A stretch of DNA of 64,000 nt from Acidimicrobiales bacterium. Its GTDB lineage: Bacteria; Actinomycetota; Acidimicrobiia; Acidimicrobiales; CATQHL01. The stretch spans positions 103,577 through 167,576 of the forward strand of contig OZ219784.1 in assembly GCA_964291305.2 (NCBI GenBank), given 5' to 3'. The notes under the pieces were generated by a model, which was not told the DNA's origin, ran no database searches, and worked only from the letters and a program-made list of their open reading frames with translations. The translations under genes and the position numbers were made by a program. Within the stretch, counting starts at the first letter, position 1; each line of letters begins with the position of its first letter. Positions 9,583-31,905 of the stretch are shown piece after piece.

Positions 9583-9620
9583 AAGCAGTCCGGGCGCGGT
9601 TAGCAGTTAGTCGCACAGAG

Positions 9621-13379: not shown

Positions 13380-14297
13380 GTGAGCATCCAAGGGCGCCTG
13401 CCAGCAGACGTGCCGATCGGCTGGATCGGCACCGGAGTCATGGGTGCCTCCATGTGCGGGCACCTCATGAGCGCTGGCCACCCCGCAGCCGTCCACACCC
13501 GCACCCGCGCCAAGGCCGCCGGGCTGCTAGAGCAGGGCGCGACATGGGCCGACTCGCCACGCCAGGTAGCCGAGGCAACCGGCGTGATCTTCAGCATCGT
13601 GGGCTACCCGGCTGACGTGCGGGAGGTGATCTTGGGCCCCGACGGCGTGTTGGCCGGCTGTCGCGGCGGCGAGGTAATCGTGGACATGACCACCAGCGAA
13701 CCTTCCCTGGCAGTCGAGATAGCCGAGGCGGCCGCGGCTCGGGGTGTAGCGGCGGTGGACGCTCCCGTATCGGGGGGCGATGTGGGTGCCCGCGGCGGCA
13801 CCCTTTCGATCATGATCGGGGGCGACGCCGAGGTGGTGACCTCCCTAGCGCCCTTCTGGGATGCCATGGGGCGCACCTGGGTACACCAGGGCGGCCCCGG
13901 CGCCGGCCAGCACACCAAGATGGTGAACCAGACGCTCATAGCCGCCGGCATGATCAGCGTATGTGAGGGCCTGCTCTACGCCTGGCGGGCCGGGCTAAAC
14001 CTAGAACAGGTCATGGAGTCGGTAGCCAGCGGCGCGGCGGGCAGCTGGTCGCTCTCCAACCTGGGCACCCGCATGATCGCCGGCAACTTCGACCCGGGCT
14101 TCTTCGTTGAGCATTTCGTAAAAGACATGGGCATCGCCCTCGCTGAGGCCGACCGCATGGGCCTCGAGCTGCCGGGCCTGCGGCTAGCCCGGGAACTCTA
14201 CGGCCAACTGATAGCCGCCGATCGGGGTCGCCTCGGCACTCAATCCCTGATTCTGGCCCTCGCCGAACTCTCGGGGCTGGACTGGGCTAAGCGCTGA
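13380..14297 (+). CDS. NAD(P)-dependent 3-hydroxyisobutyrate dehydrogenase-family oxidoreductase
   Basis: 305-aa ORF with GTG start and Rossmann motif [17 protein letters not shown]. Paralogue of 11336..12253. Confidence 0.8.
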
Positions 14298-14309
14298 GGC
14301 TCTGTCCGG

Positions 14310-14450
14310 CCTAGACTGGCCCCCGGTCCGGGGACGAAGTCCGGTTGGAATCCGGCACTGTCCCGCAACGGTGAAGCGATGCCTGTCGCTTGGGGAAGTT
14401 CCCCAGCTTCGAACCATCGCTGAGTCCGGTCGAATCCCGGCCCGAGCAAA
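14310..14450 (+). promoter_or_regulatory. Cobalamin (B12) riboswitch
   Basis: GGGACGAAGTCCGGTTGGAATCCGGCACTGTCCCGCAACGGTGAAGCG fits the conserved core GGGAA..GGTG..AATCC..CCCGC..AC.GT. A B12-box-like GAGTCCGGTCGAATCCCGGCC follows. It lies directly 5' of a BtuF-type gene. Boundaries are approximate. Confidence 0.65.
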
Positions 14451-14535
14451 CCACAACACCCTCGAGGATCAGGGTTGGTTTGGCCGGCAGCCTCTGTCGA
14501 TCGAGCTTCTGTCCTCGACCGACAGGAGGTACCCG

Positions 14536-15729
14536 ATGCTCAAACAGCGCTCCGTTGTATTTCTCGCTTGGATTCTGGCGCTTGCCGGCTTGCTAGCCGT
14601 CAGCTGCGGCAGCGACAACACATCTGACGCTACGGCTCCGGCTCCGCCACCGGTGGCCGAGCCCGCGCCAGCACCATCGGAAGTGGATCCGCCCCCGGCA
14701 CCGCCAGAACAACCCAGGGAGGAGGCCAGCCCCACGACGGCAACCGTCGAAGAACCCCCAGCAGCCTCCTCAGCTACGACGTCTTCGCCCACGACAACTG
14801 CGCCCACGACAACTGCGCCTACGACAACTGTCGCGGTCGCGCCCGAACCGCCGAGCACCACTAGCACGACCGTTGCCACAGCGGAAGAAGAACCAGCCGG
14901 TCTGGATGCTAGGTTCCCCGTCACGATCGACTCCGACGCCGGTACCTGGATGCTGGAGCAGGCACCACAGCGCATCGTTTCCCTGTCGCCGACTGCCACC
15001 GAGACCCTTTTCGCTGTCGGTGCGGGGCCGCAAGTAGTAGCTGCCGATAGTTGGTCAACTTTCCCCCCAGAGGCTCCGACCACCGACCTCTCGGCATTCA
15101 ACCCAAACGTTGAAGCCATAACCACATACGACCCCGACCTTGTGGTGATCTCCTACGACACAAACGACCTAGTTGCCAGCCTGACCGCACTGGAAATACC
15201 GGTACTGATGAGCACAAATCCAGCTGACATCGAGGGTGGTTACACCACTATGACCCAGCTCGCTACAGCCACCGGCCACGTCGAAGGAGCCCAGGAAGTT
15301 ATCGAGTCGATGCGTACCGCCATAACCGAAACCCTGGCAAGCGCCCCCGATATCCAGATCCGCGTGTACCACGAACTCGACAATACGTACTACTCGGCAA
15401 GCTCTAACGGCTTCGTGGGTTCGGTCTATTCCACGCTCGGCGTTATCAACATCGCCGATGAAGCAGACGTCAACGGCTCGGGATTCCCCCAGCTCACCGA
15501 GGAGTACATCATCGAGGCGGACCCGCAGCTGATCGTGATTACCGACCAGACGGGTTACACCGCTGAGGATGTTGCCGCCCGTCCCGGTTGGGATTCGATC
15601 AGCGCAGTGCGTGAGGGCAACATCCTCATGGTCAACGCCGACATTGCCTCGCGCTGGGGCCCTCGTCTTCCCCAGTTCCTCAGCGCCGTGACAGAGGCTC
15701 TGACAGAAATCGCTGCTACGGCCCCCTAA
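14536..15729 (+). CDS. BtuF/FhuD-type periplasmic-binding lipoprotein (cobalamin/siderophore ABC importer)
   Basis: Track ORF 14371..15729 overlaps the riboswitch. In-frame ATG 14536 follows RBS gacaggagg and gives signal peptide MLKQRSVVFLAWILALAGLLAVSCGS (lipobox-like). A long P/T/A-rich linker precedes RIVSLSPTATETLFAVGAG. Confidence 0.8.
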   Translation: MLKQRSVVFLAWILALAGLLAVSCGSDNTSDATAPAPPPVAEPAPAPSEVDPPPAPPEQPREEASPTTATVEEPPAASSATTSSPTTTAPTTTAPTTTVAVAPEPPSTTSTTVATAEEEPAGLDARFPVTIDSDAGTWMLEQAPQRIVSLSPTATETLFAVGAGPQVVAADSWSTFPPEAPTTDLSAFNPNVEAITTYDPDLVVISYDTNDLVASLTALEIPVLMSTNPADIEGGYTTMTQLATATGHVEGAQEVIESMRTAITETLASAPDIQIRVYHELDNTYYSASSNGFVGSVYSTLGVINIADEADVNGSGFPQLTEEYIIEADPQLIVITDQTGYTAEDVAARPGWDSISAVREGNILMVNADIASRWGPRLPQFLSAVTEALTEIAATAP

Positions 15730-15763: not shown

Positions 15764-16843
15764 ATGGCCGCACCGCCGGAACGTGCCGCGGCCGAAACGG
15801 CGGCACTGCGGGCATTCCGCTTGCCGCCGTTGGCGGCGGCAGTGGCTCTTGTAGTTGTTGCGGGCGTGGCGTTGCTTAGTGCGACGCGAGGCGCCGCCGG
15901 ACTGGGATTCACCGACGTGCTAGCGGCCATAGCGGATCGGCTGCCGCTAGTCGAGTTGGATTCGGGGCTGAGCAGCCGCCAGGAGGGCATTCTGTTCCAG
16001 ATTCGCCTGCCCCGGTTGGTGCTGGGAATGTTAGTGGGCGGGGCTTTAGCCATGGCCGGAGCCGCATATCAGGGCGTGTTCCGCAATCCCCTCGCAGACC
16101 CATACCTACTGGGCATCTCCGCCGGGGCGGGGTTCGGCGCCGTGCTAGCGATCGGGTTCGGCCTCGACTTGGGCCTGGGACCGTTCGACGCCGTGGCAGC
16201 GGCGGCGTTCGTCGGGGCGATAGTGGCGGTTACGGCCTCAGCCACCATCGCCCGGGGCGCCTGGCGCTCGACTGCCACGCTGCTACTGGCCGGCATCGCT
16301 ATGGCTTCCCTTTTCTCTGCCGCCCAGACCTACGCCTTGAGCCAGCTGAACGAGGCGCTCACCCGCGAGGTGATTTCATGGCTGTTCGGCCGGCTGAACA
16401 CCAGTGGCTGGGGGGAAGTAGGGATCCTGGGGCCTTACGTGATCGTCTGCGGGCTTGTCCTGCTGTTGCACCGCCGCCATCTGGATGTGCTGCGGGTGGG
16501 CGACGACGAGGCCCGCTCTCTGGGAATAAACCCAACTCGACTGCGGCTGGTGGTTATCCTCGCCGCCTCGCTGCTGACAGCCGCGGCGGTGTCGGTCAGC
16601 GGTCTAATAGGTTTTGTGGGCCTTGTCGTGCCCCATGTCGTCCGGCTGCTGGTGAGCCATAGTTACCGCGTCATCGTGCCACTCTCGGCGCTTGGCGGAG
16701 CGGCCTTTCTGGCGTTGGTGGACACCGGAGCCCGCACGCTCACCGCCCCCGCCGAACTGCCGGTCGGGGTAATCACCGCGTTAGTGGGCGCCCCGTTCTT
16801 CGTGCTGGTGCTGTGGCGCGCCTCCCGCAAGGTGCTGGCATGA
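15764..16843 (+). CDS. FecCD/BtuC-family ABC importer permease
   Basis: 359-aa polytopic membrane ORF. ILFQIRLPRLVLGMLVGGALAMAGAAYQGVFRNPLADPYLLGIS is typical of FecCD permeases. Confidence 0.85.
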   Translation: MAAPPERAAAETAALRAFRLPPLAAAVALVVVAGVALLSATRGAAGLGFTDVLAAIADRLPLVELDSGLSSRQEGILFQIRLPRLVLGMLVGGALAMAGAAYQGVFRNPLADPYLLGISAGAGFGAVLAIGFGLDLGLGPFDAVAAAAFVGAIVAVTASATIARGAWRSTATLLLAGIAMASLFSAAQTYALSQLNEALTREVISWLFGRLNTSGWGEVGILGPYVIVCGLVLLLHRRHLDVLRVGDDEARSLGINPTRLRLVVILAASLLTAAAVSVSGLIGFVGLVVPHVVRLLVSHSYRVIVPLSALGGAAFLALVDTGARTLTAPAELPVGVITALVGAPFFVLVLWRASRKVLA

Positions 16844-18261
16844 CGGCAGGCACAGCTCATCTTCCGCCTTCAAGCGGCGATGCACTAACAGAGCTGGACT
16901 CAGCTGCCGAATCGCTCACCTGTCGGCAGATACGGGTGTCGTTCGGCGAGATCGAGGCACTGCGCGGGGTAGACCTGCGGCTGAGCAGCGGAGAGTGGCT
17001 TGGCCTGATCGGACCGAACGGCGCCGGCAAGTCCACGCTGCTGCGCGCAATCGCTGGCCTGGTGGACTACGAAGGCAGCGTCTCTCTGGGCTGTGGCCGG
17101 CGGCTTGGCGGCCAAGATGTGGCCCTAGTGCCGCAGAACCCAACACTGCCCGAAGGCATGACTGTGGCCGAGTACGCCCTGCTGGGTCGAAGCCCCCACC
17201 TGGGTTGGCTGGAGGTGGAGTCGCGCCGTGACCGCCGCATAGTAGCCACGGCGTTGGAGCGGCTGAACCTGCAGCGGTTCGCCGACCGCCCCGTGACTCA
17301 CCTTTCCGGTGGCGAAATCCAGCGCGTCACGTTAGCGCGAGCGCTCGTCCAGCAGGCCCCGATCCTGCTCTTAGACGAGCCGACAAGCTCGCTAGATCTA
17401 GGCCACCGAGATTCTGTACTGGAGTTGATAGACAAACTGCGTCGCAACGTCGGAGTCTCAGTGATCGCCGCCATGCACGACCTCAGCACGGCTGCTCGCT
17501 TTGCCGACCGTTTGGCGCTAATCCACCGGGGGCGCATCGTGGCCGACGGCCCGCCGCAGAGCGTCCTGCAACCCAGCAGACTCTCTGCGGTCTACGCCAC
17601 GCCGCTAAACGTCCACACCATCGACGGCGAAATAGTCGTCTTGCCCACTGCCCGAACCGACCCGAACCAACAGGAGCACCCGACCATGACAACCGACCAA
17701 GCACCCCTTACCGAACGACCCTACGAGCGAGGTGAGTTGCGCTCGGCACCCTCGCTGGTGCTGGTCAACACCGGCGAGGGGAAAGGTAAGTCCACGGCGG
17801 CGTTCGGCACGGTTTTGCGGGCCGTGGCTTTGGGCTGGCCGACCGCAGTGGTTCAGTTCCTCAAGAGCGGAGATTGGAATACCGGCGAAGAGAAAGTATG
17901 TCGCAGCCTGGGCGTGGAGTGGTCCTCAGCAGGCGACGGCTTCACCTGGGAATCCGAGGACCTGGACGAGACCCAAGCTAAAGCAGTAGCCGCCTGGCAG
18001 TTCTCTGCCGAGTTGATAGCGGCGGGCAATCACCGGCTAGTGGTGCTAGACGAGATCAGCTACGCCATGACCTGGGGTTGGATCGCCGCCGCCGAAGTAG
18101 CCGCAGCGCTGGCTGGCCGCCCAGAGCAGGTCAACGTAATCCTGACAGGGCGGGACATGGCCGCAGAAATAGTCGAAGTGGCCGACACCGTTAGCGAGAT
18201 GGTGAGCGTGAAACATGCCTTCGACCGCGGTATTCGGGCCAAGAAGGGAATCGACTACTAG
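16840..18261 (+). CDS. Fusion protein: ABC importer ATPase (BtuD/FepC-like) + cob(I)alamin adenosyltransferase (CobO/BtuR)
   Basis: ATG 16840 forms an ATGA overlap with the permease stop. Walker A GPNGAGKST, signature LSGGEIQR, Walker B LLLDEPTS. With no intervening stop, a CobO domain follows: LVLVNTGEGKGKSTAAFG...VVLDEISYAM...VKHAFDRGIRAKKGIDY. An internal ATG sits at 17686. Confidence 0.8.
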   Translation: MTAGTAHLPPSSGDALTELDSAAESLTCRQIRVSFGEIEALRGVDLRLSSGEWLGLIGPNGAGKSTLLRAIAGLVDYEGSVSLGCGRRLGGQDVALVPQNPTLPEGMTVAEYALLGRSPHLGWLEVESRRDRRIVATALERLNLQRFADRPVTHLSGGEIQRVTLARALVQQAPILLLDEPTSSLDLGHRDSVLELIDKLRRNVGVSVIAAMHDLSTAARFADRLALIHRGRIVADGPPQSVLQPSRLSAVYATPLNVHTIDGEIVVLPTARTDPNQQEHPTMTTDQAPLTERPYERGELRSAPSLVLVNTGEGKGKSTAAFGTVLRAVALGWPTAVVQFLKSGDWNTGEEKVCRSLGVEWSSAGDGFTWESEDLDETQAKAVAAWQFSAELIAAGNHRLVVLDEISYAMTWGWIAAAEVAAALAGRPEQVNVILTGRDMAAEIVEVADTVSEMVSVKHAFDRGIRAKKGIDY

Positions 18262-18372: not shown

Positions 18373-20658
18373 ATGGCGTATCAGATCATCCAGTCGGAAC
18401 CGTACTGGGACTGCGTGAGTTCGCTGCGTCGAGATGATCCCTACAAGTCTCACCTGGTGGACACACTCGACGATTTGCGGCGTCAACCGTTCGGCAACCC
18501 TCGCCTAAGCACCCACGACATCGGCACGGCGCGCAACGGCCGCAAACTCTTTTCCTCCGATGTAGGTGGCCGGACAAGCGACCGGCGCGTCGTCTGGCAG
18601 ATCTTCGGCCAGACCATCGTTGTACTGCTCTACGGCAACCACAAGGTCCAGGACCGGGCCAAGCGGATGCAGATCAGCTTCGATCAGCAGCAGCAGTTGA
18701 TGCAGGTGTACGAGCAGGCACCAGACTCCGAGGCAGAGCGGCCATATCGGGAACACCGCAAGACTTCAGGAACTCTGTTCATGGCGTGGACCGACCGAGA
18801 GTTGGCTTCACTTGGCTTCCCAGAACCCACCGTGGAGCACCTGCGCCGCTTGAACAGCGAGGACGAGCTTCTAGCGCTCGAAGAGAACCTGGGCCCTCAA
18901 CTTTTTGAACTCGCTGTTGAGGTAATCACCGTCGGCCCACCGGTAAGGACTATCGGCACAGCCACCGCATTGGAAGCCCCCGAGCCGCCGGTAAGCGCCA
19001 AGCCTCCAGTGGATCGCCAGCCCGAGGCACCAACCAGCGCTGAGGCCAGCACGGCTACGGCCCCGGCAACCCCGCCCGAGGTGAGCGACGAGGACCGCGA
19101 GCTGGAGCGTCTGCTGAACGACGAGCAGGCCGGAGCGCTGTTCACTCGGTTGGAGCCGGAGTTCATGGCCGAAGTGATCGGCCGACCCATCGAGGACTGG
19201 ATGATCTTCTTGCACCCCGATCAGCGCTCCACTGCAACTCGGCGTTACCAGGGCCCAGCCCGGGTGCGCGGCCCCGCTGGTACCGGCAAGACGGTGGTGG
19301 GCCTACACCGAGCCGCCCACTTAGCCGCTCGCAGCCGCGCCGCCGAGGCTGCTGGCCCAGCGAGCGATAGTGAGCCAACCCTTCCGGTGCTTGTCACTAC
19401 CTACATCAGCTCGCTGCCGCCGGTTTTCGAGGAGTTGTACGGGCGCATGCCCGGCACCCAGTCGGGCGAAGTGGAGTTCCTCAACGTCGACAAGCTGGCC
19501 CGGCAGGTATGCAAAGAGGCAGAAGAACGAGCTTATGTCAACTCGCGCAAGGTGGATACTGCTTACGAACAGGCCTTCAAGCAAGTCGTCTTGCCCGGTA
19601 CGCCGCTGCACGGCCTTACCTCGCGGTACCTGCAAGATGAGATCACCAAGATGATCAAGGGTCGGGCCATCGAGTCTTTAGAGGATTATCTGGGGATGGA
19701 GCGCACCGGCCGCCGAATGCGGCTGGGGCGGCTGCAGCGGACCCAGGTTTGGGAGTTGATGGAGTGCTGGGACGCCGAGATGGATCGACACGGCACCATG
19801 GACTTCTGCGATGTGATCCTGCGAGCACTATGGGTAGCTCGAGAAAGCACCCGGCCGCGCTATTCGGCCGTGATCGTCGACGAGGCCCAAGATCTGACCA
19901 TGGCTGGTTTGCAGTTTCTGCGGGCGCTAGTCAACGCCCCGGATCACGACGTAGACCGCCCCGATGGGCTGTTCATCCTGGGTGACGGGGCACAGCGCAT
20001 TTATCCCGGCGGTTTCACGCTGCGCCAGGCGGGGGTAGAGGTGCGCGGCCGCACCACCGTGTTGACCGAGAACTACCGCAACACTGGCGAGATCATCAGC
20101 GCGGCGCTAGCCGTGGCGGGCGATCACCGCGTGGAGGACCTCAGCGAGGAGTTCCAGCGGGGAGACGAGACGATCACAACCAGCCGTCAGGGCCCTCGAC
20201 CGTTGCGGATCGAAGCCCAAGGCTGGGATAACCAAGCCGCGGCCATCGCTCAATGCATCCAGGACTTCATAGCCGAGGACACGAGCCTCGGTCATGGAGG
20301 TATGGCGGTGTTAGTGAGTTCCAACAACGCTGCAAACGGATTCCGCAACCGCCTGGAACAGTTGGAGTTAGCAGTGCAGCCTCTAGAGAACTACGACGGA
20401 CAGCCCAACGACAAGGTAAAGGTAGGTACCTACCACCGCGCCAAGGGGCTGGAGTTCAAAGTGGTGTTCCTCCCACAACTCGGCCGTTTCCCACCCGACC
20501 CACGCAAGGGCCAAGGCGAAGAAGAAGCAGCCGAGGACTACGACCTACACATGTCGCAGTTGTTCGTAGCCATGACCCGTGCCCGAGACCGGCTAGTGGT
20601 ACTCCACAGCCCCAACGGAAGCAAAGCAATAGACCCCGCCACCGACTACTTCGAGTAG
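18373..20658 (+). CDS. RelE/ParE-like N-terminal domain fused to an SF1 (UvrD-like) helicase
   Basis: 761 aa. Residues 1-100 are toxin-like (SDRRVVWQIFGQTIVVLLYGNHK). The helicase core has WMIFLHPDQ, Walker A GPAGTGKT (aa 300-307), VIVDEAQD, ENYRNT, YHRAKGLEFKVVF and FVAMTRARDRLVVL. Confidence 0.8.
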   Translation: MAYQIIQSEPYWDCVSSLRRDDPYKSHLVDTLDDLRRQPFGNPRLSTHDIGTARNGRKLFSSDVGGRTSDRRVVWQIFGQTIVVLLYGNHKVQDRAKRMQISFDQQQQLMQVYEQAPDSEAERPYREHRKTSGTLFMAWTDRELASLGFPEPTVEHLRRLNSEDELLALEENLGPQLFELAVEVITVGPPVRTIGTATALEAPEPPVSAKPPVDRQPEAPTSAEASTATAPATPPEVSDEDRELERLLNDEQAGALFTRLEPEFMAEVIGRPIEDWMIFLHPDQRSTATRRYQGPARVRGPAGTGKTVVGLHRAAHLAARSRAAEAAGPASDSEPTLPVLVTTYISSLPPVFEELYGRMPGTQSGEVEFLNVDKLARQVCKEAEERAYVNSRKVDTAYEQAFKQVVLPGTPLHGLTSRYLQDEITKMIKGRAIESLEDYLGMERTGRRMRLGRLQRTQVWELMECWDAEMDRHGTMDFCDVILRALWVARESTRPRYSAVIVDEAQDLTMAGLQFLRALVNAPDHDVDRPDGLFILGDGAQRIYPGGFTLRQAGVEVRGRTTVLTENYRNTGEIISAALAVAGDHRVEDLSEEFQRGDETITTSRQGPRPLRIEAQGWDNQAAAIAQCIQDFIAEDTSLGHGGMAVLVSSNNAANGFRNRLEQLELAVQPLENYDGQPNDKVKVGTYHRAKGLEFKVVFLPQLGRFPPDPRKGQGEEEAAEDYDLHMSQLFVAMTRARDRLVVLHSPNGSKAIDPATDYFE

Positions 20659-20727
20659 CCCACCGAGTAGCCCAACCTGCGATATCCCGACTGAAAAAGT
20701 GACACGCTGGCTGAGCGCGCAGACCGG

Positions 20728-22908
20728 CTACACCCAATCTCGAGGATTGTCTTTGTTTGAGGTGCTGCTGACACGACCCCTGTCATCCGAGGAATCGTCG
20801 GCCTTGTCAATCTGAAGCGAAACAGAGTCCGAGCCTTCAATGATGACCCGAACCCGGTCACCGGCACATGCTCCGAGCTGCTGCAGAGGTTCGGACACGT
20901 AGCCCAGCGAGAGACCCCCGACTGATGCGAGTGGCCAGTTCACCGAGAGCCGGCGACATCCCGGCGGCGAGGAAACCTGGACTCTGATGTTGCCATCGGG
21001 TTCGCAACCCAAGGCAGCAGCGATTTCCGGCGGGAACCCGGGAACGCTGTAGCCTTTGAAGAAGCGATCCTCAACTTCGAAGCACCAGTACGGAAAACCC
21101 GCGGCCGTGTAGCCATGCAAAACGTCGCTCAGAGGTCTCAGGACGATTGAAGAAGTGTCGGCAAGACTGACAAGGCCATCCCGGAGCACGAAACGAGGAG
21201 TCCCTACAAAGGAACGAACACTAAACTCGCTCACTCCGAACTGTCGAGGCAACTCTTCAAGGATCCTCTCAAGTCGAGTAGCCCCATTATCTTCGTGGAT
21301 CCTCTGGATGATTTCCGCTGCTATGCCTTCGTACTCATCCTCGATCCATTCGACGAGACCCCAACGCACCTTGTCCGCCCTAACAACGCTTTCAAGCACC
21401 GACAAGTGTGAAACAACTCTGCCGGGGTCTAGCCCACAAAGTTCAGCAATCTCGTCTCGCGTCGCAGGTCGTCCAATCTCAAGTAGCGCTGCCTTAGCTC
21501 GAGCCCTCCTGCTATTTCTGAGCGCAAGAAAGCCGCCGAGACGATGAAAATCGCAAAGAGACACGAGCAAGTCCCAGTACTGTTCCCAGCTTGCGCTGGG
21601 TAGATGCTCCCGAAGTGCGGATTCCTGAACTAGCCCCGCGTCATCCGCCAGATTGCGGGACTCGCGCCTCAGAACGTCAAGAACATCTAAGGCAGCTTCA
21701 TTGAGGCATAAACCCTCAAGGGGAGAAAATCCCAACCTCTCCTGAAGGAAGCAACATGCTAAGTCTTGGCTTTTTGCACTGTACTCGCCTACTACCGGAT
21801 CCGAAAAAATCGACGATATATGCTCTTCAAGTTCGTTCTCACTGAGGATTGGAGGAATCTGCTCTCGAAGCAGGGACGCCATAATCTCCAGATTCGACCC
21901 AATTTTTGACTCAAAAGAACGCGTGAGAGATTTCGTCATTTGCCTGACTCGTTCTCCTGAGAGATCGAGCATCTGGCCAAGCTCGCGATATGACACCCGA
22001 GATGGGGACATGATGCGCCTTTCAAGAGTCAGCTTCTCTTCGTGTCGCAGCCCTTCCCAGAGTTCGTCGATGGCCTTGAGCACCTGATCTGCGAGACTCT
22101 GGACTTTCACCAGGTCGGAGATACGAATCTCGTGGAACTCATCGGTCAACTCGAGTTTTGCTGCCAGGTTGCTGAGATCGATGTTGAGAGCGTCTCCCAG
22201 AGTGCGAGCCCCACAGAACTCTCCCGCTACGTTCAAGATTCTCTCCAATAGCGGGATCGCAGTTTCCCAACGCTTGTATTGCTTGGTGCGGCCTAAATCT
22301 GAGGGGAGCTGAGTTGCCAGTGCTATCTGTGTTTGATCCCAACGAACATCTTGACCGGTAAAGCTGACAGTCTGCCGGTCAGCAGCGGGGAGTGACTTGA
22401 AAAGACCGACGATCTGGGCAGCTTCAATAACGCACATCAAGTCCAACAGCGAAAGCACCCCGAAGTTTGGGAGCGCCAGGAGTTGAACGACTGTCAAAGG
22501 TTCACCCGGCTTAAGTCTCTTTTGGTTAAATCCTCGGAGGATGCAGTTCCGAGTCCGAGTTCGAAGGGGCAATTCGGACAATTGCTGGGGCGTCGAATCA
22601 GCGGGGATTACGATTTGTCCTTTGAACGAACCCGGATAGCTACTAACAGCAAGGTCGGCAAGTGCAGCTTGGGCTGCATTACTGATGGGCGTAGGACGGC
22701 GATCCCAAAATGTCATCAAGTCCCCGACGACCCCAAGGTCTGACCTGGCGGCCGGTGGAGCACCCACGGCTTGGAGGAACGCCGATGGAAGCGCGGCCGA
22801 CGAGAACGATTCAATGAAACCGCGGGGTAACAAGGGAGTTGGAGGGCTGCCCCAAGGTGCGAGCGGTGTCGCACTAACAACTTCAGGAACGCTCGCTGAG
22901 ATATTCAT
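20728..22908 (-). CDS. Large multi-HTH protein: RNAP alpha-CTD-like HhH + sigma-70 region-4-like HTH + HARE-type winged helices + C-terminal barrel-like domain; no catalytic motif seen
   Basis: 726-aa ORF, visibly lower G+C than its neighbours. aa ~108-165: LSELPLRTRTRNCILRG...LLALPNFGVLSLLDL. aa ~292-332: LTLERRIMSPSRVSYRELGQMLDLSGERVRQMTKSL. Later: ALLEIGRPATRDEIAELCG...VRWGLVEW. Confidence 0.6.
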   Translation of the reverse strand: MNISASVPEVVSATPLAPWGSPPTPLLPRGFIESFSSAALPSAFLQAVGAPPAARSDLGVVGDLMTFWDRRPTPISNAAQAALADLAVSSYPGSFKGQIVIPADSTPQQLSELPLRTRTRNCILRGFNQKRLKPGEPLTVVQLLALPNFGVLSLLDLMCVIEAAQIVGLFKSLPAADRQTVSFTGQDVRWDQTQIALATQLPSDLGRTKQYKRWETAIPLLERILNVAGEFCGARTLGDALNIDLSNLAAKLELTDEFHEIRISDLVKVQSLADQVLKAIDELWEGLRHEEKLTLERRIMSPSRVSYRELGQMLDLSGERVRQMTKSLTRSFESKIGSNLEIMASLLREQIPPILSENELEEHISSIFSDPVVGEYSAKSQDLACCFLQERLGFSPLEGLCLNEAALDVLDVLRRESRNLADDAGLVQESALREHLPSASWEQYWDLLVSLCDFHRLGGFLALRNSRRARAKAALLEIGRPATRDEIAELCGLDPGRVVSHLSVLESVVRADKVRWGLVEWIEDEYEGIAAEIIQRIHEDNGATRLERILEELPRQFGVSEFSVRSFVGTPRFVLRDGLVSLADTSSIVLRPLSDVLHGYTAAGFPYWCFEVEDRFFKGYSVPGFPPEIAAALGCEPDGNIRVQVSSPPGCRRLSVNWPLASVGGLSLGYVSEPLQQLGACAGDRVRVIIEGSDSVSLQIDKADDSSDDRGRVSSTSNKDNPRDWV

Positions 22909-23096
22909 ATCGCGGCACCTTACGCAAGGGACGGCGTCGTTGGAGGTTCGGCAAGGAACTCAACCGGGACTGAAGCGCCCATGCAACGAATTTATTCTGC
23001 CCCTGCGACAGCGACATGCATGCCGAATTCAACATTGACTTTCACTGATGTCGCCGGCGTGGTCTCTGTGACATGCGCGAGGTGAGAGCTTTTTCC

Positions 23097-23190
23097 GGTT
23101 TAGACCGAGGCATTACCCCAACCGCACCTACAAGCCGACCGGTCTAACCGCACGCCAAAGTTCTACTGGTTTAGACCGAGGCACTGCCCC
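23097..23190 (+). repeat. 23-bp direct repeat x2 (71-bp period) with an inverted partial copy between, in a divergent promoter region
   Basis: ggtttagaccgaggcaTtAcccc at 23097-23119 and ggtttagaccgaggcaCtGcccc at 23168-23190. cggtctaaccg at about 23139-23149 is a near reverse complement of cggtttagaccg. Confidence 0.85.
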
Positions 23191-23201
23191 CCCCCCCCCC
23201 C
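23187..23201 (+). repeat. Homopolymeric C15 tract upstream of the DUF1156 methylase gene
   Basis: 15 uninterrupted C counted directly. It ends 22 nt before GTG 23224 and 52 nt before GTG 23254. Confidence 0.95.
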
Positions 23202-23253
23202 GACTTCCCTCACCGGGCTGTGGGTGTCGTATTGTGTTAGTACCGTCTGGGTT

Positions 23254-26084
23254 GTGAGTGTGCGGCGGAAGTTGGTTGAGGTGGCGTTGCCGTTGGATGC
23301 GATCAACGCGGCGTCGGCTCGGGAGAAGTCGATCCGTCATGGGCATCCGTCGACTTTGCATTTGTGGTGGTCACGGAAGCCGTTGGCTGCGTGCCGGGCG
23401 GTGTTGTTCGCTTCGTTGGTGGACGACCCGTCTAGCCGCCCGGAGCGGTGGCCGACTGTTGAGGCTCAGACCGCTGAGCGCAAGCGCCTGTTCGGGATTA
23501 TTGAGCGGCTAGTCCGCTGGGATAACAGCAACAACTCGGACGTGTTGGCCGAGGCGCACGCGGAGATCGCCGAGAGCTGCGACGGCGACTTACCTACTGT
23601 GTTGGACCCTTTCGCCGGCGGAGGGTCGATTCCGTTGGAGGCTCAACGGCTGGGGTTGAAGGCGGTTGCGTCTGATTTGAACCCGGTGGCAGTGCTAATC
23701 AACAAAGCACAAATCGAAATACCACCCCGGTTCGCTAATCGCCCTCCGGTGCATCCCGACCAGGAGGGCGCCACGCAACTGCGGGTTTGGTCTGGCGCTC
23801 AGGGCCTGGCCGCCGATGTGGCCTACTACGGCCGATGGATGCGAGACGAAGCCGAACGTCGCATCGGCAGCCACTACCCCACCGCCGCCAACTCGGACGG
23901 CGAGCAGCTAACGCCTATCGCCTGGATCTGGGCGCGCACCGTGCGGTCGCCAGACCCCGCCTGGAACGGCCACGTGCCACTAGCGCGATCGTTCGTGGTG
24001 TCAAAGAAGAAGGGGCGCGAGGCTTGGGCGAAGCCGGTCGTCGATCGGGCAGCCCAACGATCAGATTCGAGATCCGGACTGGCGTATCGCTGATGCTCTT
24101 GAGGGCACGGTGACCGTGGCGGTGGCCGCTGCTTGGCCACCGGCACAGCCATGCCATTCCCCTATATCCGCCAAGAGGGTCGCGCCGGGCGTATGGGCTT
24201 ACAGCTAATGGCAATCGTGGCAGAAGGCGACCGGCAGCGTGTCTACTTGCCGCCGACAGCGGATCACGTCGAGGCGGCCCGGGTGCCGCCGCCGGAGGCC
24301 CCCCCCCCCCGCGAGGCGATTTACCGCACAATCCCCGAGATTTCAAGACTCCTAACTACGGGATGACCTCATGGGCTGACCTATTCACCCCGCGGCAGTT
24401 GGTGGCCCTAACCACGTTTTCTGACCTGCTGGGTGATGTCTCCGAAATAGTATCTAGGGATGCGGCTGCGGTGGGCATGGCCGATGATGGGTTTCGGCTG
24501 CGCGACGGCGGTTGCGGTGCTCAAGCGTATGGGGACGCGATAGTTACGTATCTGGCTTTTGTGATTGATAAGTGCGCTGATTACTGGTCTTCGATCTGCA
24601 CCTGGACTAACTCAGGGGAATTTGTTCGTAGCACGTTTGCCCGTCAGGCGATCTCGATGAACTGGGACATGGCAGAAACGAATCCATTTTCTGATTCGAC
24701 GGGGAATTGGATATCGATGGTCGATTGGGTTTCCAAAGCGGTTAGCCAATCGCCTGCCCTATTTCCTGGCGAGGCGGTTCAGCAGGGCCACCGGTTGAAT
24801 AATCCTGCACGAACGTGGCACTTCCCAACCCTAGTCCCCGGCGAGGCGGCCCAGCAGGACGCCCAGTCCGCCGTCAAAGAGCACGAGAAAGTTCTCATTT
24901 CCACTGATCCGCCGTATTACGACAACATCGTGTACGCCGATTTGTCAGATTTCTTCTACGTGTGGCTGCGACGCAACCTCGCCGACGTTTGGCCGGAAGA
25001 ATGCTCGACGCTACTAGTGCCGAAAGCAGACGAACTAGTGGCAACGCCTTATCGGTTCGACGGCGACAAACGGCGAGCTGAAGAGTTCTTCGAGTCAGGG
25101 CTGAATCGTGTGTTCAGCGGTTTGGGGGAGGTGCAAGATGAGCGATTCCCGTTCACCGTCTACTACGCCTTCAAACAAGCGGAGACCACTAAGGGGGGCG
25201 TAGCGTCTACGGGCTGGGAGACGATGCTGCAGAGCCTGGTCGACGCCGGGTTCGTAATCAACGGCACCTGGCCGCTTCGAACAGAGCGGTCAAGTCGCCC
25301 TATCGCTGTCGGGGCGAACGCGCTGGCGTCTTCGATTGTGCTGGCCTGCCGGCGGCGGCCCGAGTCCGCCCCACTCGCTTCTCGGCGGGAGTTCCTGGGT
25401 GCTCTCAAAGCCGAACTGCCCGAGGCATTGCGCTTGCTGCGCCAGGGAGGCATCGCACCGGTGGATATGGCCCAAGCGGCTATCGGGCCGGGCATGGCAG
25501 TGTTCTCCCGCTACGAGCAGGTCATGGAAGCCAACGGCGAAACCATGAGAGTCCGCACCGCACTAGAACTGATCAACGAAACCCTCGACGAAGTCACACG
25601 AGAGATAGACGCCGACTTCGACTACGACACCCGCTGGGCGGTCAGCTGGTTCAGCGAATACGGCTTCGAAGAAGGCGAATACGGCCGCGCCGAGCTGCTG
25701 TCTAAGTCTCGCAACACCTCGGTAGCCGGTCTCGTAGAAGCAGGCATCGCCCAAGCCGGCGCCGGCCGGGTGCGCTTACTCCGCCTCGACGAACTAGACC
25801 TGGAATGGGACCCAGCAACCGACGACCGGTTCACCGTCTGGGAAATCACCCACCACCTCATCCGCCGCATCCACGACCTGGGCGAACAATCAGCCGCAAC
25901 CCTGCTGCGCGCGGTGGGAGGCCACGGCGACTCGGCCAAAGAACTCGCCTACCGCCTCTACCTAATCTGCGAACGCAAAAACTGGGCCGCCGAAGCGCTC
26001 GGCTACAACAGCCTCGTCACCTCCTGGGCCGAACTAACCAAACTCGCCACCCAAACCCCCACCACCGCCCCCACACTCCTATAA
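23254..26084 (+). pseudogene. DUF1156 / COG1743-type adenine-specific DNA methylase, disrupted (in-frame stops, at least 4 frame changes)
   Basis: N-terminus [55 protein letters not shown], motif [21 protein letters not shown], motif IV ISTDPPYYDNIVYADLSDFFYVWLRRN. The coding path jumps frames: 1 (to ~24050), 0 (TIRFEIRTG), 2 (DALEGTV), 1 (RGGGRCLATGTAMPFPYIRQEGRAGRMGLQLMAIV), then 0 after the C12 tract (DFKTPNYGMTSWADLFTPRQL). The track splits it into 23224..24093, 24133..24366 and 24363..26084. Confidence 0.75.
24299..24310 (+). repeat. Homopolymeric C12 tract inside the DUF1156 methylase reading frame
   Basis: 12 uninterrupted C, encoding the poly-Pro run. The reading frame changes exactly here. 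Confidence 0.95.
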
Positions 26085-26257
26085 GCGCACCCTCCTGGTT
26101 CACACCTTCGAGGCTGCGCCTGTGGTCCTCCAGTGTGGCTGTGGGGCGATCGCTGCTATAAATCCGCCTGATTCATACCTATCCAGGCGACGTGATGCGC
26201 TCGGAGCACGCGTCTGTCGCTGTTGCTATAAACCCGCCTGATTCACACCTATCCAGG
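26079..26257 (+). repeat. Three-unit degenerate tandem repeat (70-73 bp period) overlapping the methylase stop codon
   Basis: gctgctataaatccgcctgattcatacctatccagg at 26152-26187 and gttgctataaacccgcctgattcacacctatccagg at 26222-26257 (3 mismatches). A degenerate copy ctataagcgcaccctcctggttcacaccttcgagg lies at 26079-26113. Confidence 0.8.
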
Positions 26258-26277: not shown

Positions 26278-26958
26278 GTGCGCAGGTCGCGCTTCCCCCC
26301 CCCCGGTGACCTCAAGAGGCTGCCCACGCTGAGGCGCTACGGCGGGCTGGGGGTTCCCAACGCTCTTGCGTGTAGGGCTGGGCGTTTCAACTCCGACATC
26401 GAACTGCCTTACAGTCTCCGTCACGTTGACTTCCGGGCGACGTTGGAAGACGTTTACGACTTGTTCTGCGACGTGAACACGCTGCTAGTTGGTAGGGGCC
26501 TCAAACGGTTAGCGGACATGGTGCGCCCGGCGATCCTTTCGGGAGTTGTGTCGGAACTGGTCACAGCGAGCCTGGCGAAGCATTCGAGGAGTTTGGCGGT
26601 CAACAGTTATCACAACGGCCATCCTGATCTAGTCCTGAGCGGCCAATACCCCGACGATGCCGCGAGGGCCGGCTCCGAAGGCGTCGAAATCAAGTCAACG
26701 GTGAACCCTCGAGGCGCGGTGGATACTCACGGGGCACGCCCGCAGTGGTTGTGTGTCTTCGTTTACGAGATCGACACGAAAACCGAACCGGTGACGGAGC
26801 GGGTGCCTCTGCGTTTCACCGCGATCTATCTAGCTCCGGTCACCAACGCTGATTTCCGCAGCAACCCTCGCGCGACTTCGCTCGGCACACGTACCGCGAG
26901 TCTTCATAAAGACGGGCTGAAGAAGTTGCGCGATAACTGGGTCTACCTCGACTCGTAG
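26278..26958 (+). CDS. PD-(D/E)XK Type II restriction endonuclease candidate
   Basis: 226-aa maximal ORF with a canonical nuclease core: NGHPDLVL then 19 residues then EGVEIKST. It converges tail-to-tail with an MTase (16-bp overlap). The true start is uncertain: GTG 26278, or as late as TTG 26443. Confidence 0.6.
   Translation: MRRSRFPPPGDLKRLPTLRRYGGLGVPNALACRAGRFNSDIELPYSLRHVDFRATLEDVYDLFCDVNTLLVGRGLKRLADMVRPAILSGVVSELVTASLAKHSRSLAVNSYHNGHPDLVLSGQYPDDAARAGSEGVEIKSTVNPRGAVDTHGARPQWLCVFVYEIDTKTEPVTERVPLRFTAIYLAPVTNADFRSNPRATSLGTRTASLHKDGLKKLRDNWVYLDS
26295..26304 (+). repeat. Homopolymeric C10 tract at the 5' end of the restriction endonuclease ORF
   Basis: 10 uninterrupted C, codons 6-9 of the longest ORF (FPPPG). 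Confidence 0.95.
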
Positions 26959-27860
26959 TCGCGTAGTTCGGGGATCGCCCGGGTGGCGAGTTGCGCGTAG
27001 GCAGGTTCGGATTCGACGCCGATGCTGGCATAGCCCAGGTGTTCGGCGGCGGCGAGCGTGGAGCCTGACCCGGCGAACGGGTCTAGTACGACGCCTTCAC
27101 CGAGCGGCAGAATGGCCCGCACAACTTGGCGCAGAAACGCTTGCGGTTTGAGGCTCGGGTGGGGGGCGATTCTCTTCTCGGCTGGACGCGTGGGCGACGA
27201 CTCGATCACGTCCATAAACGGTTTATCGTCAGAGATGCGCCGCAGCCCTCCGGTTCCCCAGGTTCGCAAGTTGTCCTGAACGCGACCCTGCAGCGGTTTG
27301 CGGAACAGCAGCCAGGGCTCCCAGCTAGAACGCGGCATAACGGTTACCTCTGGGAACTCCTCGTGCGCGTTCTTCGGCCGGTCTCCGCCGCGCATCGTCA
27401 TAACCAGGCGTACTACTTCGCCGCGCCGCTCAAGACCCCCAGCGGCTAACGCCCCGGAGACGATGTACGAAAACAGCGGATTAGACGCCACCAACACGTG
27501 AGCCCCCGGCACGAGCACCGGCATCAGCGCGCCAGCCCAAGACGAAAAGAAACAACGAAGACGACCTAGATCATCGTCGGTCAGCACGGTAAACCTAGGC
27601 AGCGGCGACCGTGCAGCACCGTCGAAAGCGGGAGGCAACCGCCACACACCGCCGCGGCCCTGGCGGAGCTTGCGCTGCTGCAGCGGCGCATATTCCACAA
27701 GCCCGTAAGGGGGATCCGTCACCACGCCGTGAACCGAGTTCGCCGGCTGAGCCTCGAGCCACTCCAAACAGTCCCCAACAAACAACGCCGAACGGCCCAC
27801 CGACACGAACGGCACCCAACCCGCATCAACGACCGCGCTAACGGAGTCGGTAGACACCAC
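26943..27860 (-). CDS. Site-specific DNA methyltransferase, beta-class N6-adenine/N4-cytosine (PF01555-type)
   Basis: 305-aa ORF. Motif IV VVTDPPYGL precedes motif I VLDPFAGSGSTLAAAEHLGY. An alternative GTG start near 27815 would remove the overlap with the upstream gene. Confidence 0.85.
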   Translation of the reverse strand: MVSTDSVSAVVDAGWVPFVSVGRSALFVGDCLEWLEAQPANSVHGVVTDPPYGLVEYAPLQQRKLRQGRGGVWRLPPAFDGAARSPLPRFTVLTDDDLGRLRCFFSSWAGALMPVLVPGAHVLVASNPLFSYIVSGALAAGGLERRGEVVRLVMTMRGGDRPKNAHEEFPEVTVMPRSSWEPWLLFRKPLQGRVQDNLRTWGTGGLRRISDDKPFMDVIESSPTRPAEKRIAPHPSLKPQAFLRQVVRAILPLGEGVVLDPFAGSGSTLAAAEHLGYASIGVESEPAYAQLATRAIPELRDYESR

Positions 27861-29261: not shown

Positions 29262-29445
29262 GCCGCGGAGTTGCTCACAACCCACAACTCCGCAGGGAGT
29301 AGGCGCTGCTAGAGATGGCCCACCAGGCTTATGGGCAGGCTGCGTTCACAACCCACGACTCCGTAGGAGGCAGGCGCTAGCCCATAGGTGGTCGCGCTGT
29401 GCCTAGACCGCGGAGCTGCTCACAGTCCACAACTCCGCAGGCATA
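29262..29445 (+). repeat. Three ~72-bp tandem units, each carrying a hairpin-forming ~30-nt element
   Basis: gcggagttg-ctcacaaccca-caactccgc at 29265-29293 forms a perfect 9-bp stem. A degenerate copy lies at ~29339-29367. gcggagctg-ctcacagtcca-caactccgc lies at 29410-29438. Inter-hairpin segments share aggcgct(g)ctag. Confidence 0.8.
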
Positions 29446-29497: not shown

Positions 29498-31237
29498 TCA
29501 GCGTCGTAGGGGCGGATTCACAGCCGGCGGTTTGATGGTGTTGTTGATGTTGAACCTCGCCGCGAACCCGTGGGTGCAGGCAGTCCAAGCACCGCGCCGT
29601 ACAGGTGGGGTATTGCCAAGCTGGTCGGGGTGTTGGAGCGTGAACCTGCCGTCGGCGTCTCGGACTACTTCGGCGCCTCTGGTGTGAACCAAATGGTGGT
29701 GGCAGTAGCTGCAGAGCAGGCAGAGGTTGTCGAGGTCGGTTTTGCCTCCGTGCTCCCAGTGGGTGATGTGGTGTGCTTGGCACCAGTTAGCCGAAGCCCC
29801 GCAACCCACGCAACCCTTATCCCGCACAGCCAACACCGCGCGCTGGCGGCTAGAAGCGTGGCGTTTACCCCGGCCGAGCCACAAAGGCTCGCTCTTACCC
29901 TTAAACACAGCCGGCAAGATTCTCGCGTCACACGCCAAACCGAGAAGCTCCTCAACCGACAGCGGGGTGCCATCAGAGAGGCGGGCGTCACGTAGTTGGC
30001 CCGCAATGGTGTCGTAGTCGGCGACCACCAACAGGTCCACACCCTGAGCCTTGCCCGCAGACTTACCAGCCTTGCCGGTTCCGCCGCTGTTGGTGACGAG
30101 CTGTTCGAGCACGTCGGCCATGCGCTGACCCGAAGAAAGCCGACGTTTAGCATCCTCAGCGTGGAACAGCCGGTTAGCCGTAGCAGTGAGAGCGGTCTCG
30201 ATGCGACTACCAGCCACCGGATCGAACCGGCCCATTAGGGAGAACATCCCATCGGGTTCCTGCTTGATATTCAAATAGCGCCGCTCCCGCTGACGCGCCC
30301 GCCGCTCCCCAAGATCACCCCGAGTCTGCTCGTTCACAAAATCGCGGACAGTGCGGCTGAACCGATCCTCGGACTCCCGCCCCGCAGCATCCAACAACCC
30401 AGCCTCACCACCCGGATCACCAGATGGGGTTTGTTCTACGGCTTCGGCGATCATCTTGGCTTGCTTCGCAGTGATAGCCCCAGAGCGCAAAGCCTCAGCA
30501 GTCCCAGGCGCCCGGCCCAACTGCTCGGCCAACTTCACGTCCTGCTTAGCCCGACCGCGTGACTGCCTCAAACCGTCACGCAACACATCAACCGCGTGGC
30601 CCTCACCCCGACGGCGGGCCAACTCGCCCACCATCTCAGCCTTCACCGCAGCCAACCGAGACTCACACCTGCCGACCAACACCAACCGAGCCTCCAACTC
30701 CCCATCAGCCAAACCCCCAACCAACAAATCCGAGGAAAACAAACCAACCAAACCCTCAACATCAAACCCCGCGCCAAGACCGGACACGCCAGCCGACCTA
30801 GAGGACCCAGTAGCGGCACCAGAGGCCCCACCAGCAGAAGTGCCATTGCGCCCAACAACAGATACTCGGTCAGCGGACCCAACAACGGCGGCAGCGGACC
30901 CGGCAGCACCGACGGCGCCGGCAGCCCCAACAGCGACGACCGCAGACTCATCAGCAGACCCAACAACGGCGGCAGCGGACCCGGCAGCACCGACGGCGCC
31001 GGCAGCCCCAACAGCGACGCCAACAGACCCAAAGACAGCAGCGCCGGCGGCCCCAACAGCAGCACCATCGGCCCCAATAGCGGTGGTGCCGTTATGCCCA
31101 GCAGCACCCCCGCCAGCGCGCCCAGCAGCAGCACCCCCGCCAGCGCGCCCAGCAGCAGCGTCGTTCAGCTCGGCAGCGCCGTCGGGCTCAGCAGCAACCC
31201 CAACAGCCGAGTCGTCGAACAGAGTCGCAATCGTCAT
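29498..31237 (-). CDS. DUF222 / REP13E12-family HNH endonuclease
   Basis: C-terminal HNH DKGCVGCGASANWCQAHHITHWEHGGKTDLDNLCLLCSYCHHHLVH. Probable start ATG 31237 (MTIATLFDD); the track ORF extends to 31420. The N-terminal third is A/G-rich repeats. Confidence 0.85.
   Translation of the reverse strand: MTIATLFDDSAVGVAAEPDGAAELNDAAAGRAGGGAAAGRAGGGAAGHNGTTAIGADGAAVGAAGAAVFGSVGVAVGAAGAVGAAGSAAAVVGSADESAVVAVGAAGAVGAAGSAAAVVGSADRVSVVGRNGTSAGGASGAATGSSRSAGVSGLGAGFDVEGLVGLFSSDLLVGGLADGELEARLVLVGRCESRLAAVKAEMVGELARRRGEGHAVDVLRDGLRQSRGRAKQDVKLAEQLGRAPGTAEALRSGAITAKQAKMIAEAVEQTPSGDPGGEAGLLDAAGRESEDRFSRTVRDFVNEQTRGDLGERRARQRERRYLNIKQEPDGMFSLMGRFDPVAGSRIETALTATANRLFHAEDAKRRLSSGQRMADVLEQLVTNSGGTGKAGKSAGKAQGVDLLVVADYDTIAGQLRDARLSDGTPLSVEELLGLACDARILPAVFKGKSEPLWLGRGKRHASSRQRAVLAVRDKGCVGCGASANWCQAHHITHWEHGGKTDLDNLCLLCSYCHHHLVHTRGAEVVRDADGRFTLQHPDQLGNTPPVRRGAWTACTHGFAARFNINNTIKPPAVNPPLRR
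30871..31019 (-). repeat. 81-bp in-frame tandem duplication inside the HNH gene (a 27-bp x2 repeat lies at ~31100-31156)
   Basis: A 68-bp block cagc(g/a)gacccaacaacggcggcagcggacccggcagcaccgacggcgccggcagccccaacagcgacg occurs at 30871-30938 and 30952-31019. It encodes AVGAAGAVGAAGSAAAVVGSAD twice. Confidence 0.85.
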
Positions 31238-31722
31238 CAGACACCCCCTCAAAACAGTGTGCACCGTTGGCTTCCGTTCGGCGGAGCCGACAAGCCGGAC
31301 AAACAACACCAACCCCGCAAACAGATCAGCGACCGGTACCAAGCAGTTTATCCAATCAACACAAAAACACAACGTCTGTATGTAATCTGAGGGAAATAAT
31401 TTTAAGCGACAGCCGCACAAAGACGGAAACGGTGTCGATCGCGCCGTCTAGTGCCTTCTCATCCCACCCCGCGGCAGGTGCTCTCACAGCACGGGGCGCT
31501 GGCACCCAACGCCCAAAGAAGCTGCTGGAACACTCACCGCCTGAGACTGCCGCTTGCGTCCTCTACGCAAAGTTCGACAGCACGCGCTACCGGCGCCCGG
31601 AACACTCACCGCCCGAGTTTGACGCTTGCGCCTAGGGCGAGATCGGCTTCGGCGGTGAGAACAACTACCCACGCAACCAGCGGGAACCGAAGCCGCTTGC
31701 GCCTAGTCCGAGATTAGCTGGC

Positions 31723-31905
31723 GGCGAGCGTTCGCCTTACTGATCAGCAGCGGTGCGCTGGTTGGGCATCGACCAGCTGGCCCGACGAGGCCCGGCGAGC
31801 GTTCGCCTTACTGATCAGCAGCGGTGCGCTGGTTGGGCATCGACCAGCTGGCCCGACGAGGCCTCGGCGAGCGTTCGCCTTACTTATCAGCAGCGGTGTG
31901 CTGTG
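31723..31905 (+). repeat. 71/72-bp tandem repeat, about 2.5 near-identical units; more degenerate 72-73-bp units upstream to ~31520
   Basis: The unit ggcgagcgttcgccttactgatcagcagcggtgcgctggttgggcatcgaccagctggcccgacgaggccc starts at 31723, 31794 and 31866. ggaacactcaccgcc also repeats at ~31525 and ~31598, and cgcttgcgcctag at ~31622 and ~31694. Confidence 0.9.

Follow-up and report, generated by a model that had tools for sequence, protein, structure and literature searches.

Phase-variable methylases have so far been found mostly in host-adapted pathogens, where they belong to Type I and Type III systems, and in a single BREX-type case, that of pglX. Surveys cover phasevarions in genera such as Haemophilus, Neisseria and Helicobacter, in which Type III mod or Type I hsdM/hsdS are the switching genes (PMC5909438, PMC7383803). 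Restriction requires the methylase in these systems, so the OFF state is safe (PMC5909438, PMC7383803), a logic that is accepted for Type III mod. Poly-G switches Cj0031, a Type IIG enzyme in Campylobacter jejuni (PMC4889913). In Streptomyces coelicolor the G-tract of pglX contracts from 8 to 7 G or expands again, which turns Pgl off and on at 1e-2 to 1e-4 (PMC4365076, citing Sumby & Smith 2003).

The Hma system consists of the helicase-nuclease HmaA, the methylase HmaB and the DUF499 ATPase HmaC, and a recent analysis grouped it with the DUF499-centred BREX-related systems. In MANTIS (Gao_RL), a relative of Hma, loss of the methylase MtsC is non-toxic and abolishes targeting; MtsC methylates only together with its DUF499 ATPase. 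In the literature searched we found no report of phase variation for DUF1156, Hma, BREX-related or MANTIS systems. The preliminary description of the locus had known of no homopolymer switching in DUF1156 methylases or in high-G+C actinobacteria. The first half of this claim agrees with our search, while the second has to be given up because of the pglX G-tract.

The stretch of DNA analysed here (the window) comprises 64,000 nucleotides. Its DUF1156 gene starts with GTG at 23254, in agreement with the intact orthologue P0121 and the called N-terminal fragment P0128, and stops with TAA at 26082-26084. The N-terminal ORF (23224-24093) matched Pfam DUF1156 (PF06634) with E=2e-31 and, in addition, the D12-type adenine-methylase motif. 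Both methylase motifs, I (FxGxG) and IV (DPPY), are present in the window gene (Table 1). P0121 matched the PADLOC HmaB profiles at full length with 1192 and 1175 bits; it fell short of the cut-off of NCBIfam DUF1156_antiphage (115 vs 1000 bits). Judged by profiles and motifs, the window gene belongs with the N6-adenine methylases of HmaB type in the BREX-related Hma family, i.e. to an anti-phage type. A 22-aa segment, SQSPALFPGEAVQQGHRLNNPARTW (24744-24818), was considered as a duplication linked to decay and was dismissed, since the intact orthologue carries the same segment.

Table 1. Features of the methylase locus, in coordinates of the window.
Feature	Position	Strand	Basis or remark
71-nt direct repeat copies	23090-23128 and 23161-23199		
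C15 tract, ends 52 nt upstream of start codon	23187..23201	+	in second copy of 71-nt direct repeat
HmaB-type (DUF1156) N6-adenine DNA methylase pseudogene, four indels	23254..26084	+	profiles, orthologue
Motif I DPFAGGGS, AdoMet-binding loop	23605..23628	+	motif; same motif bears G-tract in L043, L044, L077
Deletion 1, 1 nt vs L080, frame 1 to frame 0	24055..24059	+	DNA alignment
Deletion 2, 1 nt vs L080	24082..24086	+	DNA alignment
TGA closing N-terminal fragment (279 aa, P0128), reached after deletion 1	24091..24093	+	
Deletion 3, 1 nt vs L080; net of three = -3	24108..24112	+	DNA alignment
C12 tract, +2 vs in-frame C10 of orthologue, OFF length	24299..24310	+	sequence, alignment, editing
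TGA met by upstream frame past C12	24364-24366	+	
Motif IV TDPPYYDN, catalytic DPPY	24903..24926	+	motif, alignment
226-aa ORF, candidate restriction endonuclease	26278..26958	+	coding-type GC3, PD...EIK motif
C10 tract, codons 6-9 of ORF 26278-26958	26295..26304	+	
Type II N6/N4 DNA methylase gene	26943..27860	-	Pfam N6_N4_Mtase; PADLOC MTase_II E=7e-115

HmaB is flanked in most related loci by HmaA of about 1200 aa and by HmaC of about 1100 aa. With HmaA and HmaC of the Corynebacterium locus L077 as tblastn queries there was no match at 1e-8 in the window or in L080, the contig that encodes P0121, while the same search detected HmaA in 55 and HmaC in 62 other loci. Thus the adjoining SNF2 helicase-nuclease and DUF499 ATPase that make up an Hma system are missing in the window. 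A neighbouring UvrD-like helicase and a 726-aa HTH protein were examined as partners of HmaB and rejected, as neither had Hma matches and both are absent from L080. By analogy with MtsC, an HmaB that stands alone as in the window and L080 may not methylate by itself. Because the methylase stands alone and its MANTIS counterpart needs the DUF499 ATPase, a phasevarion role of the window gene is speculative.

The G+C content drops to 57-62% around the methylase gene, and other mobile or defence-type genes were noted in this low-G+C region. Cobalamin genes, two operons of nuo type and a B12 riboswitch lie in the remainder of the window, which is ordinary Acidimicrobiales-like chromosome. The downstream 226-aa ORF had no family match in profile searches; it is convergent with the Type II methylase gene.

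The window contains just three homopolymers of at least 8 nt, all of them poly-C on the plus strand and spanning 3.1 kb around the methylase gene (Table 1). Ten positions of the window matched 10-nt C/G runs, compared with 0.52 ± 0.8 (maximum 3) in 100 dinucleotide-preserving shuffles of the window. The C12 tract exceeds chance. As in contingency genes, a simple repeat is located within the ORF, and the C15 tract lies upstream of it. Scans for sigma-70 promoters and terminators around the C15 and C10 tracts yielded nothing. We also considered whether repeats of about 71-nt periodicity are degenerate CRISPR arrays, given that L080 has cas genes; this was rejected because whole units rather than half-units alone are repeated, with site-specific sequences.

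The C12 tract coincides with a change of reading frame in the methylase gene. Upstream, the translation runs ...HVEAARVPPPEAPPP (24295-24309); downstream, it proceeds from 24312 as RGDLPHNPRDFKTPNYG... in a different frame, and the conserved continuation that starts at 24312 in this other frame is RGDLPHNPRDFKTPNYGMTSW... Editing of the tract in silico showed that C10 or C13 would fuse the two frames. An AlphaFold model (pLDDT 80, pTM 0.76) has residues 344-360 as coil, with a beta-rich insert before and helices after it. The tract encodes a Pro-rich loop that is flanked by a Zn-ribbon insert on one side and by the next helical domain on the other. Neither a sequence search of the PDB nor Foldseek on the model was informative.

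The closest orthologue with DNA, P0121 (943 aa), was found via the 90% cluster of the C-terminal fragment of the window gene, and its contig L080 was read as DNA. The L080 gene is intact and has GAG-A-C10-G-CGA, i.e. ETPPPRG, where the window has GAG-G-C12-G-CGA with two additional C. Because intact L080 carries C10 at the same site, we take 10 (or 13) C as ON and 12 C as OFF lengths. P0001, with 86% identity and available as protein only, also reads ETPPPRG at the tract site, while the alignment shows that PPP is missing there in more distant homologues. Therefore the homopolymer is a feature of a sub-lineage. It is kept in the one close relative with DNA, at ON length in L080 and at OFF length in the window. 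Look-ups of identical proteins for the C-terminal fragment of the window gene and for P0001, P0021 and P0124 gave no match. In a collection of species-representative genomes, which contains neither the genome of the window nor that of P0001, the best loci were 63-70% identical. When JGI metagenomes were scanned for the flanks of the tract as a DNA pattern, one chance match, L081, without a methylase turned up. The N-terminal 400 aa as a protein query returned many truncated HmaB fragments and no new close relative beyond P0128 of the window.

The DNA alignment with L080 revealed that single nucleotides are missing from the window gene near 24057, 24084 and 24110. Across these deletions the reading frame passes through all three phases. 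When only the tract was edited to 10 or 13 C, the resulting ORF did not exceed 660 aa. The repeat is accordingly not the sole lesion in the window, and the tract cannot act as a switch there because the three further frameshifts kill the gene. These results bear out part of the preliminary description, which had seen the frame-switch point in the C12 tract, named 10 or 13 C as in-frame and 12 C as OFF lengths, proposed orthologues as a place to look for a homopolymer at this site, and noted additional disruptions at 24040-24120 that a tract switch alone would not overcome. The additional frameshifts also bear on the idea that RNA polymerase slippage or ribosomal frameshifting on C12 lets the OFF allele produce some complete protein without mutation. 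Transcription is known to slip on long homopolymers, a general property with nothing specific to the window; yet the upstream deletions and the TGA at 24091-24093 would truncate the protein ahead of the tract, and we regard such a rescue as extremely improbable.

After repair of all four indels the gene had no in-frame stop and its protein was 92% identical to P0121. Comparison of the repaired gene with that of L080 gave a dN/dS of 0.13 at a dS of 0.30. The low dN/dS together with the absence of any remaining stop argues for purifying selection through nearly all of the divergence and for a recent death of the gene. Thus the sequence indicates a recent inactivation, unless the lesions are assembly errors. 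Selection of this strength on a stand-alone HmaB was seen although MtsC requires its DUF499 ATPase. The three deletions span 53 nt, which independent random decay would predict at roughly 1e-3 by our own rough estimate. The clustering may stem from a single error-prone repair patch or from a local problem of the consensus.

The last point leads to the question of whether the window gene is really intact, with a true tract of 10 or 13 C and possibly with consensus errors as the three deletions. Homopolymers of at least 10 nt are the chief residual error in long-read assemblies, and the window was taken from a 217-kb contig whose genome is of uncultured type. Each of the four lesions is an indel, their repair leaves neither a stop nor an excess of amino-acid changes, and the close spacing of the three deletions is odd; each of these observations would fit a miscalled gene. 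However, none of the three deletions lies in a homopolymer. Furthermore, 10 of 10 other genes tested in the window matched their families end to end. The window is therefore not generally indel-ridden, and errors would have to be limited to the methylase gene.

Plain decay of a pseudogene would be another explanation of the same data. The gene would have lost its partners and its function, and the poly-C would be its most mutable spot that was never selected as a switch. Four frame-breaking indels in a single gene, the lack of HmaA and HmaC and the position in a low-G+C region with other mobile or defence-type genes are all in line with decay. On the other hand, the gene of L080 stands alone as well and is intact with an in-frame C10, and the dN/dS of 0.13 points to a gene that was under selection until recently.

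The family was surveyed for G/C runs in 79 loci encoding relatives plus L080, the window and L082 (82 in all), and enrichment was calculated on the first 81 sequences with 1.43 Mb. These contained 21 G/C runs of at least 9 nt. Ten of them are located inside HmaB, which accounts for 16% of these 1.43 Mb (binomial P=7e-4, for a small sample of 21 tracts of which six come from the single locus L039). None was inside HmaA or HmaC, where 5.2 were expected (25% of the sequence). Of the 11 runs outside HmaB, seven precede an HmaB start by no more than 400 nt.

The tracts occupy different places in the gene. They were found in the FAGGGS motif (G11 in L043, G9 in L044, G10 in L077), in the loop preceding the Zn ribbon (C9 in L048, C29 in L021, G18 in L039 and G14 in its second copy), at a turn near residue 323 (G12 in L017), at residue 350 (window and L080) and at residue 412 (C13 in L082). 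L021 and L039 are located on Acidimicrobiales chromosomes. The presence of at least five sites with either C or G points to independent origins. DSSP on the P0121 model assigned coil or an inter-strand turn to all four placeable sites (the motif, ~323, 350 and 412). In the DPF[ACS]GGG motif the G-run was no longer than 6 in 65 of 68 copies and 9-11 in the other three. Upstream tracts analogous to the C15 of the window were noted in L039 (C14 and C10 at 70-95 nt ahead of the second copy, and G9 at about 40 nt ahead of the first), in L050 (C9 about 25 nt upstream of the HmaB start) and in L082 (C9 20 nt upstream).

Six of these genes are out of frame at the tract (L017 G12, L021 C29, L043 G11, L044 G9, L048 C9 and L082 C13). 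In each of the six the tract is the sole lesion, and an edit of +/-1 nt gave a full-length ORF of 924-1066 aa. In frame at the tract were L080 (C10), L077 (G10) and both copies in L039 (G18, G14). Between L044 and L077, two Corynebacterium MAGs, the tract is the sole non-triplet indel inside the gene. Single ON/OFF calls are provisional, particularly for C29, G18 and the C12 of the window, since many of the comparison genomes appear, from their record and contig names, to be long-read MAGs, in which homopolymer length is the typical residual error. That the tracts exist and that they are concentrated in HmaB is independent of exact lengths.

The survey bears on both explanations set out above. 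Decay alone leaves unexplained that a 10-nt run was kept under purifying selection and that tracts recur elsewhere in the family as sole lesions, and we consider it an unlikely account of the locus. With respect to miscalled lengths, the G9 allele of L044 is OFF in a MetaWRAP-binned MAG, which from its record name we infer to be a short-read assembly; in view of this presumed short-read case, of the non-homopolymer context of the deletions and of the full-length neighbouring genes, errors as the sole cause appear quite improbable.

We therefore favor the view that the poly-C in the ORF of HmaB is a slippage-prone element that serves as an ON/OFF switch in the family and has recently died in a locked-off state in the window, to which we assign a probability of roughly 0.55. 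Strand slippage in replication would be the cause of changes in the number of C. A tract of 10 or 13 C would give the full protein of 943-944 aa, whereas with 11, 12 or 14 C translation would end within about 20 codons. The tracts of the family may be maintained by selection as elements that turn the methylase ON and OFF reversibly, and where HmaA and HmaC are present the tract would toggle an entire BREX-like defence. In the window the allele presumably went OFF by a gain of two C, and three deletions of one base each, located some 190-250 nt upstream, would then have turned it into a locked-off pseudogene of a stand-alone HmaB. Confinement of the tracts to the methylase fits an enzyme that is needed for target recognition and whose loss is safe. 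Taken together, the pattern of tracts in the family suggests the signature of contingency genes, with an on/off switch that decayed in the genome of the window.

Slightly below even odds, we extend this to the proposal that HmaB of several lineages, among them uncultured Acidimicrobiales and Corynebacterium, is systematically equipped with poly-G/C tracts, shortly before the start codon and at five or more independent sites in the ORF, which would make both Hma defence and methylation by stand-alone HmaB phase-variable. On this view the window holds a burnt-out example of an undescribed class of phase-variable defence or epigenetic switches in environmental actinobacteria. If true, stochastic ON/OFF switching of methylation-based defence reaches a second BREX-related family and uncultured marine and environmental actinobacteria. 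The confinement of tracts to HmaB, with none in HmaA or HmaC, would mean that this protein serves both targeting and self-protection, as MtsC does in MANTIS. In practical terms, frameshifts at homopolymers of HmaB should not be 'corrected', or dismissed as pseudogenes or assembly errors, before the reads have been inspected.

Compared with the Hma system as described, the window gene is an HmaB by profile and most related loci have the canonical HmaA-HmaB-HmaC operon; the window and L080 differ by lacking HmaA and HmaC. With the phasevarions HmaB shares an N6-adenine methylase ORF that contains simple repeats and the presence of both ON and OFF alleles in databases (PMC5909438, PMC7383803). 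Yet phasevarions belong to host-adapted pathogens, rely mostly on tetra- or pentanucleotide repeats or on poly-G, in genomes of low GC, and have demonstrated effects on regulons, whereas the carriers of HmaB tracts are uncultured Acidimicrobiales and Corynebacterium MAGs that are known here from sequence alone. Cj0031 is likewise a methylase-containing enzyme that is toggled by an intragenic homopolymer (PMC4889913), but it is a fused restriction-methylase of an unrelated family in a low-GC pathogen. The closest parallel in its features is pglX, which is also an adenine methylase of BREX type (type 2) with an intragenic G/C homopolymer in a high-G+C actinobacterium. It differs in being a gamma-class enzyme of another family that is always part of pglWXYZ and whose switching was demonstrated experimentally. 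HmaB of the window belongs to DUF1156 and stands alone, the tracts of its family are longer (9-29 nt), and its switching is deduced. Thus intragenic G-tract phase variation of an actinobacterial defence methylase is already known from pglX, while the family-wide habit of HmaB seems to be unreported.

The C15 tract 5' of the methylase pseudogene belongs to a direct repeat of 71 nt and lies within its second copy; at the corresponding position the first copy has CCCCAACCGCACC. Comparable G/C tracts are found upstream of HmaB in L039, L050 and L082, three other loci encoding HmaB relatives. At L080, the locus with the closest orthologue, the motif TATGGTGACC occurs three times at a spacing of about 71 nt and reaches the methylase start. 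Inside the pseudogene three separate 1-nt deletions fall within 53 nt (24055-24112) with a spacing of 27 and 26 nt and a net change of -3. Their site is a variable loop region, where homopolymers of other HmaB genes are located, too.

The 3' end of the methylase gene carries a tandem array of 2.5 to 3 units of about 70 nt in the window (26074-26257) as well as in L080 (12819-12990). In both, the first unit is formed by the final bases of the gene including its stop codon, and the unit sequences are not alike between the two loci. Repeated integration at this site may have left the array behind. Repeats with a period of about 69 to 74 nt were also present in intergenic regions. Each region has 2 to 3 copies of a unit of its own; the period is conserved and the sequence is not. 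A CRISPR-like nature of these repeats was rejected because the repetition covers whole units.

Coordinates of features near the methylase gene and of intergenic repeats, and identifiers of N-terminal HmaB fragments
Feature	Window	L080	Strand	Remark
C15 tract	23187-23201			ends 52 nt 5' of methylase start codon
71-nt direct repeat, two copies	23090-23128, 23161-23199
226-aa ORF	26278-26958			coding-type GC3; HPDLVL...GVEIKST
Type II N6/N4 methylase gene	26943-27860		-
Nucleotidyltransferase, 339 aa	28168-29187		-	weak matches to MntA-type antitoxins and Hailong HalB
DUF222-HNH ('13E12-type') gene	29498-31420	13494-14876	- (window), + (L080)
Intergenic repeats, ~69-74-nt period	5066-5218, 29263-29441, 31527-31630, 31623-31719, 31722-31903	9850-10000
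N-terminal HmaB fragments				P0126, P0141, P0162, P0189, P0191, P0196, P0207, P0230

No family match was found for the 226-aa ORF. It has a PD...EIK motif. As it is convergent with the Type II methylase gene, it is probably the restriction endonuclease partner of this methylase. A C10 tract (26295-26304) constitutes codons 6-9 (FPPPG) of the ORF and is in frame in the assembly. The nucleotidyltransferase gene and the methylases share one low-G+C island. The DUF222-HNH gene, which is about 87% identical between the window and L080, adjoins the stand-alone methylase in both loci in opposite orientation; the copy in the window has internal repeats of 81 and 27 nt (30870-31160).

Elsewhere in the window, a match to Rfam RF01482 with 51.9 bits marks an AdoCbl riboswitch (14309-14486, + strand) ahead of the gene of a BtuF-like substrate-binding protein inside a cobalamin gene cluster with cobO and cobQ close by. 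Two single ORFs are apparent fusions, one of an ABC-transporter ATPase with a CobO adenosyltransferase (482 aa; 16813-18261, + strand) and one of NuoE with NuoF (660 aa; 60574-62556, - strand).

In other genomes, L039 has two stand-alone HmaB genes on one Acidimicrobiales chromosome (8618-11719 and 19160-21709) with 7.4 kb between them. Each copy possesses its own intragenic G-tract (G18 and G14) in addition to its own upstream tracts. Furthermore, protein calls on Mb-sized contigs, e.g. in Truepera radiovictrix and Mycobacterium lacus, include many HmaB proteins that are N-terminal fragments of 400-700 aa. Thus, judged from called protein fragments, breakage of HmaB seems to be common far outside the lineage of the window.
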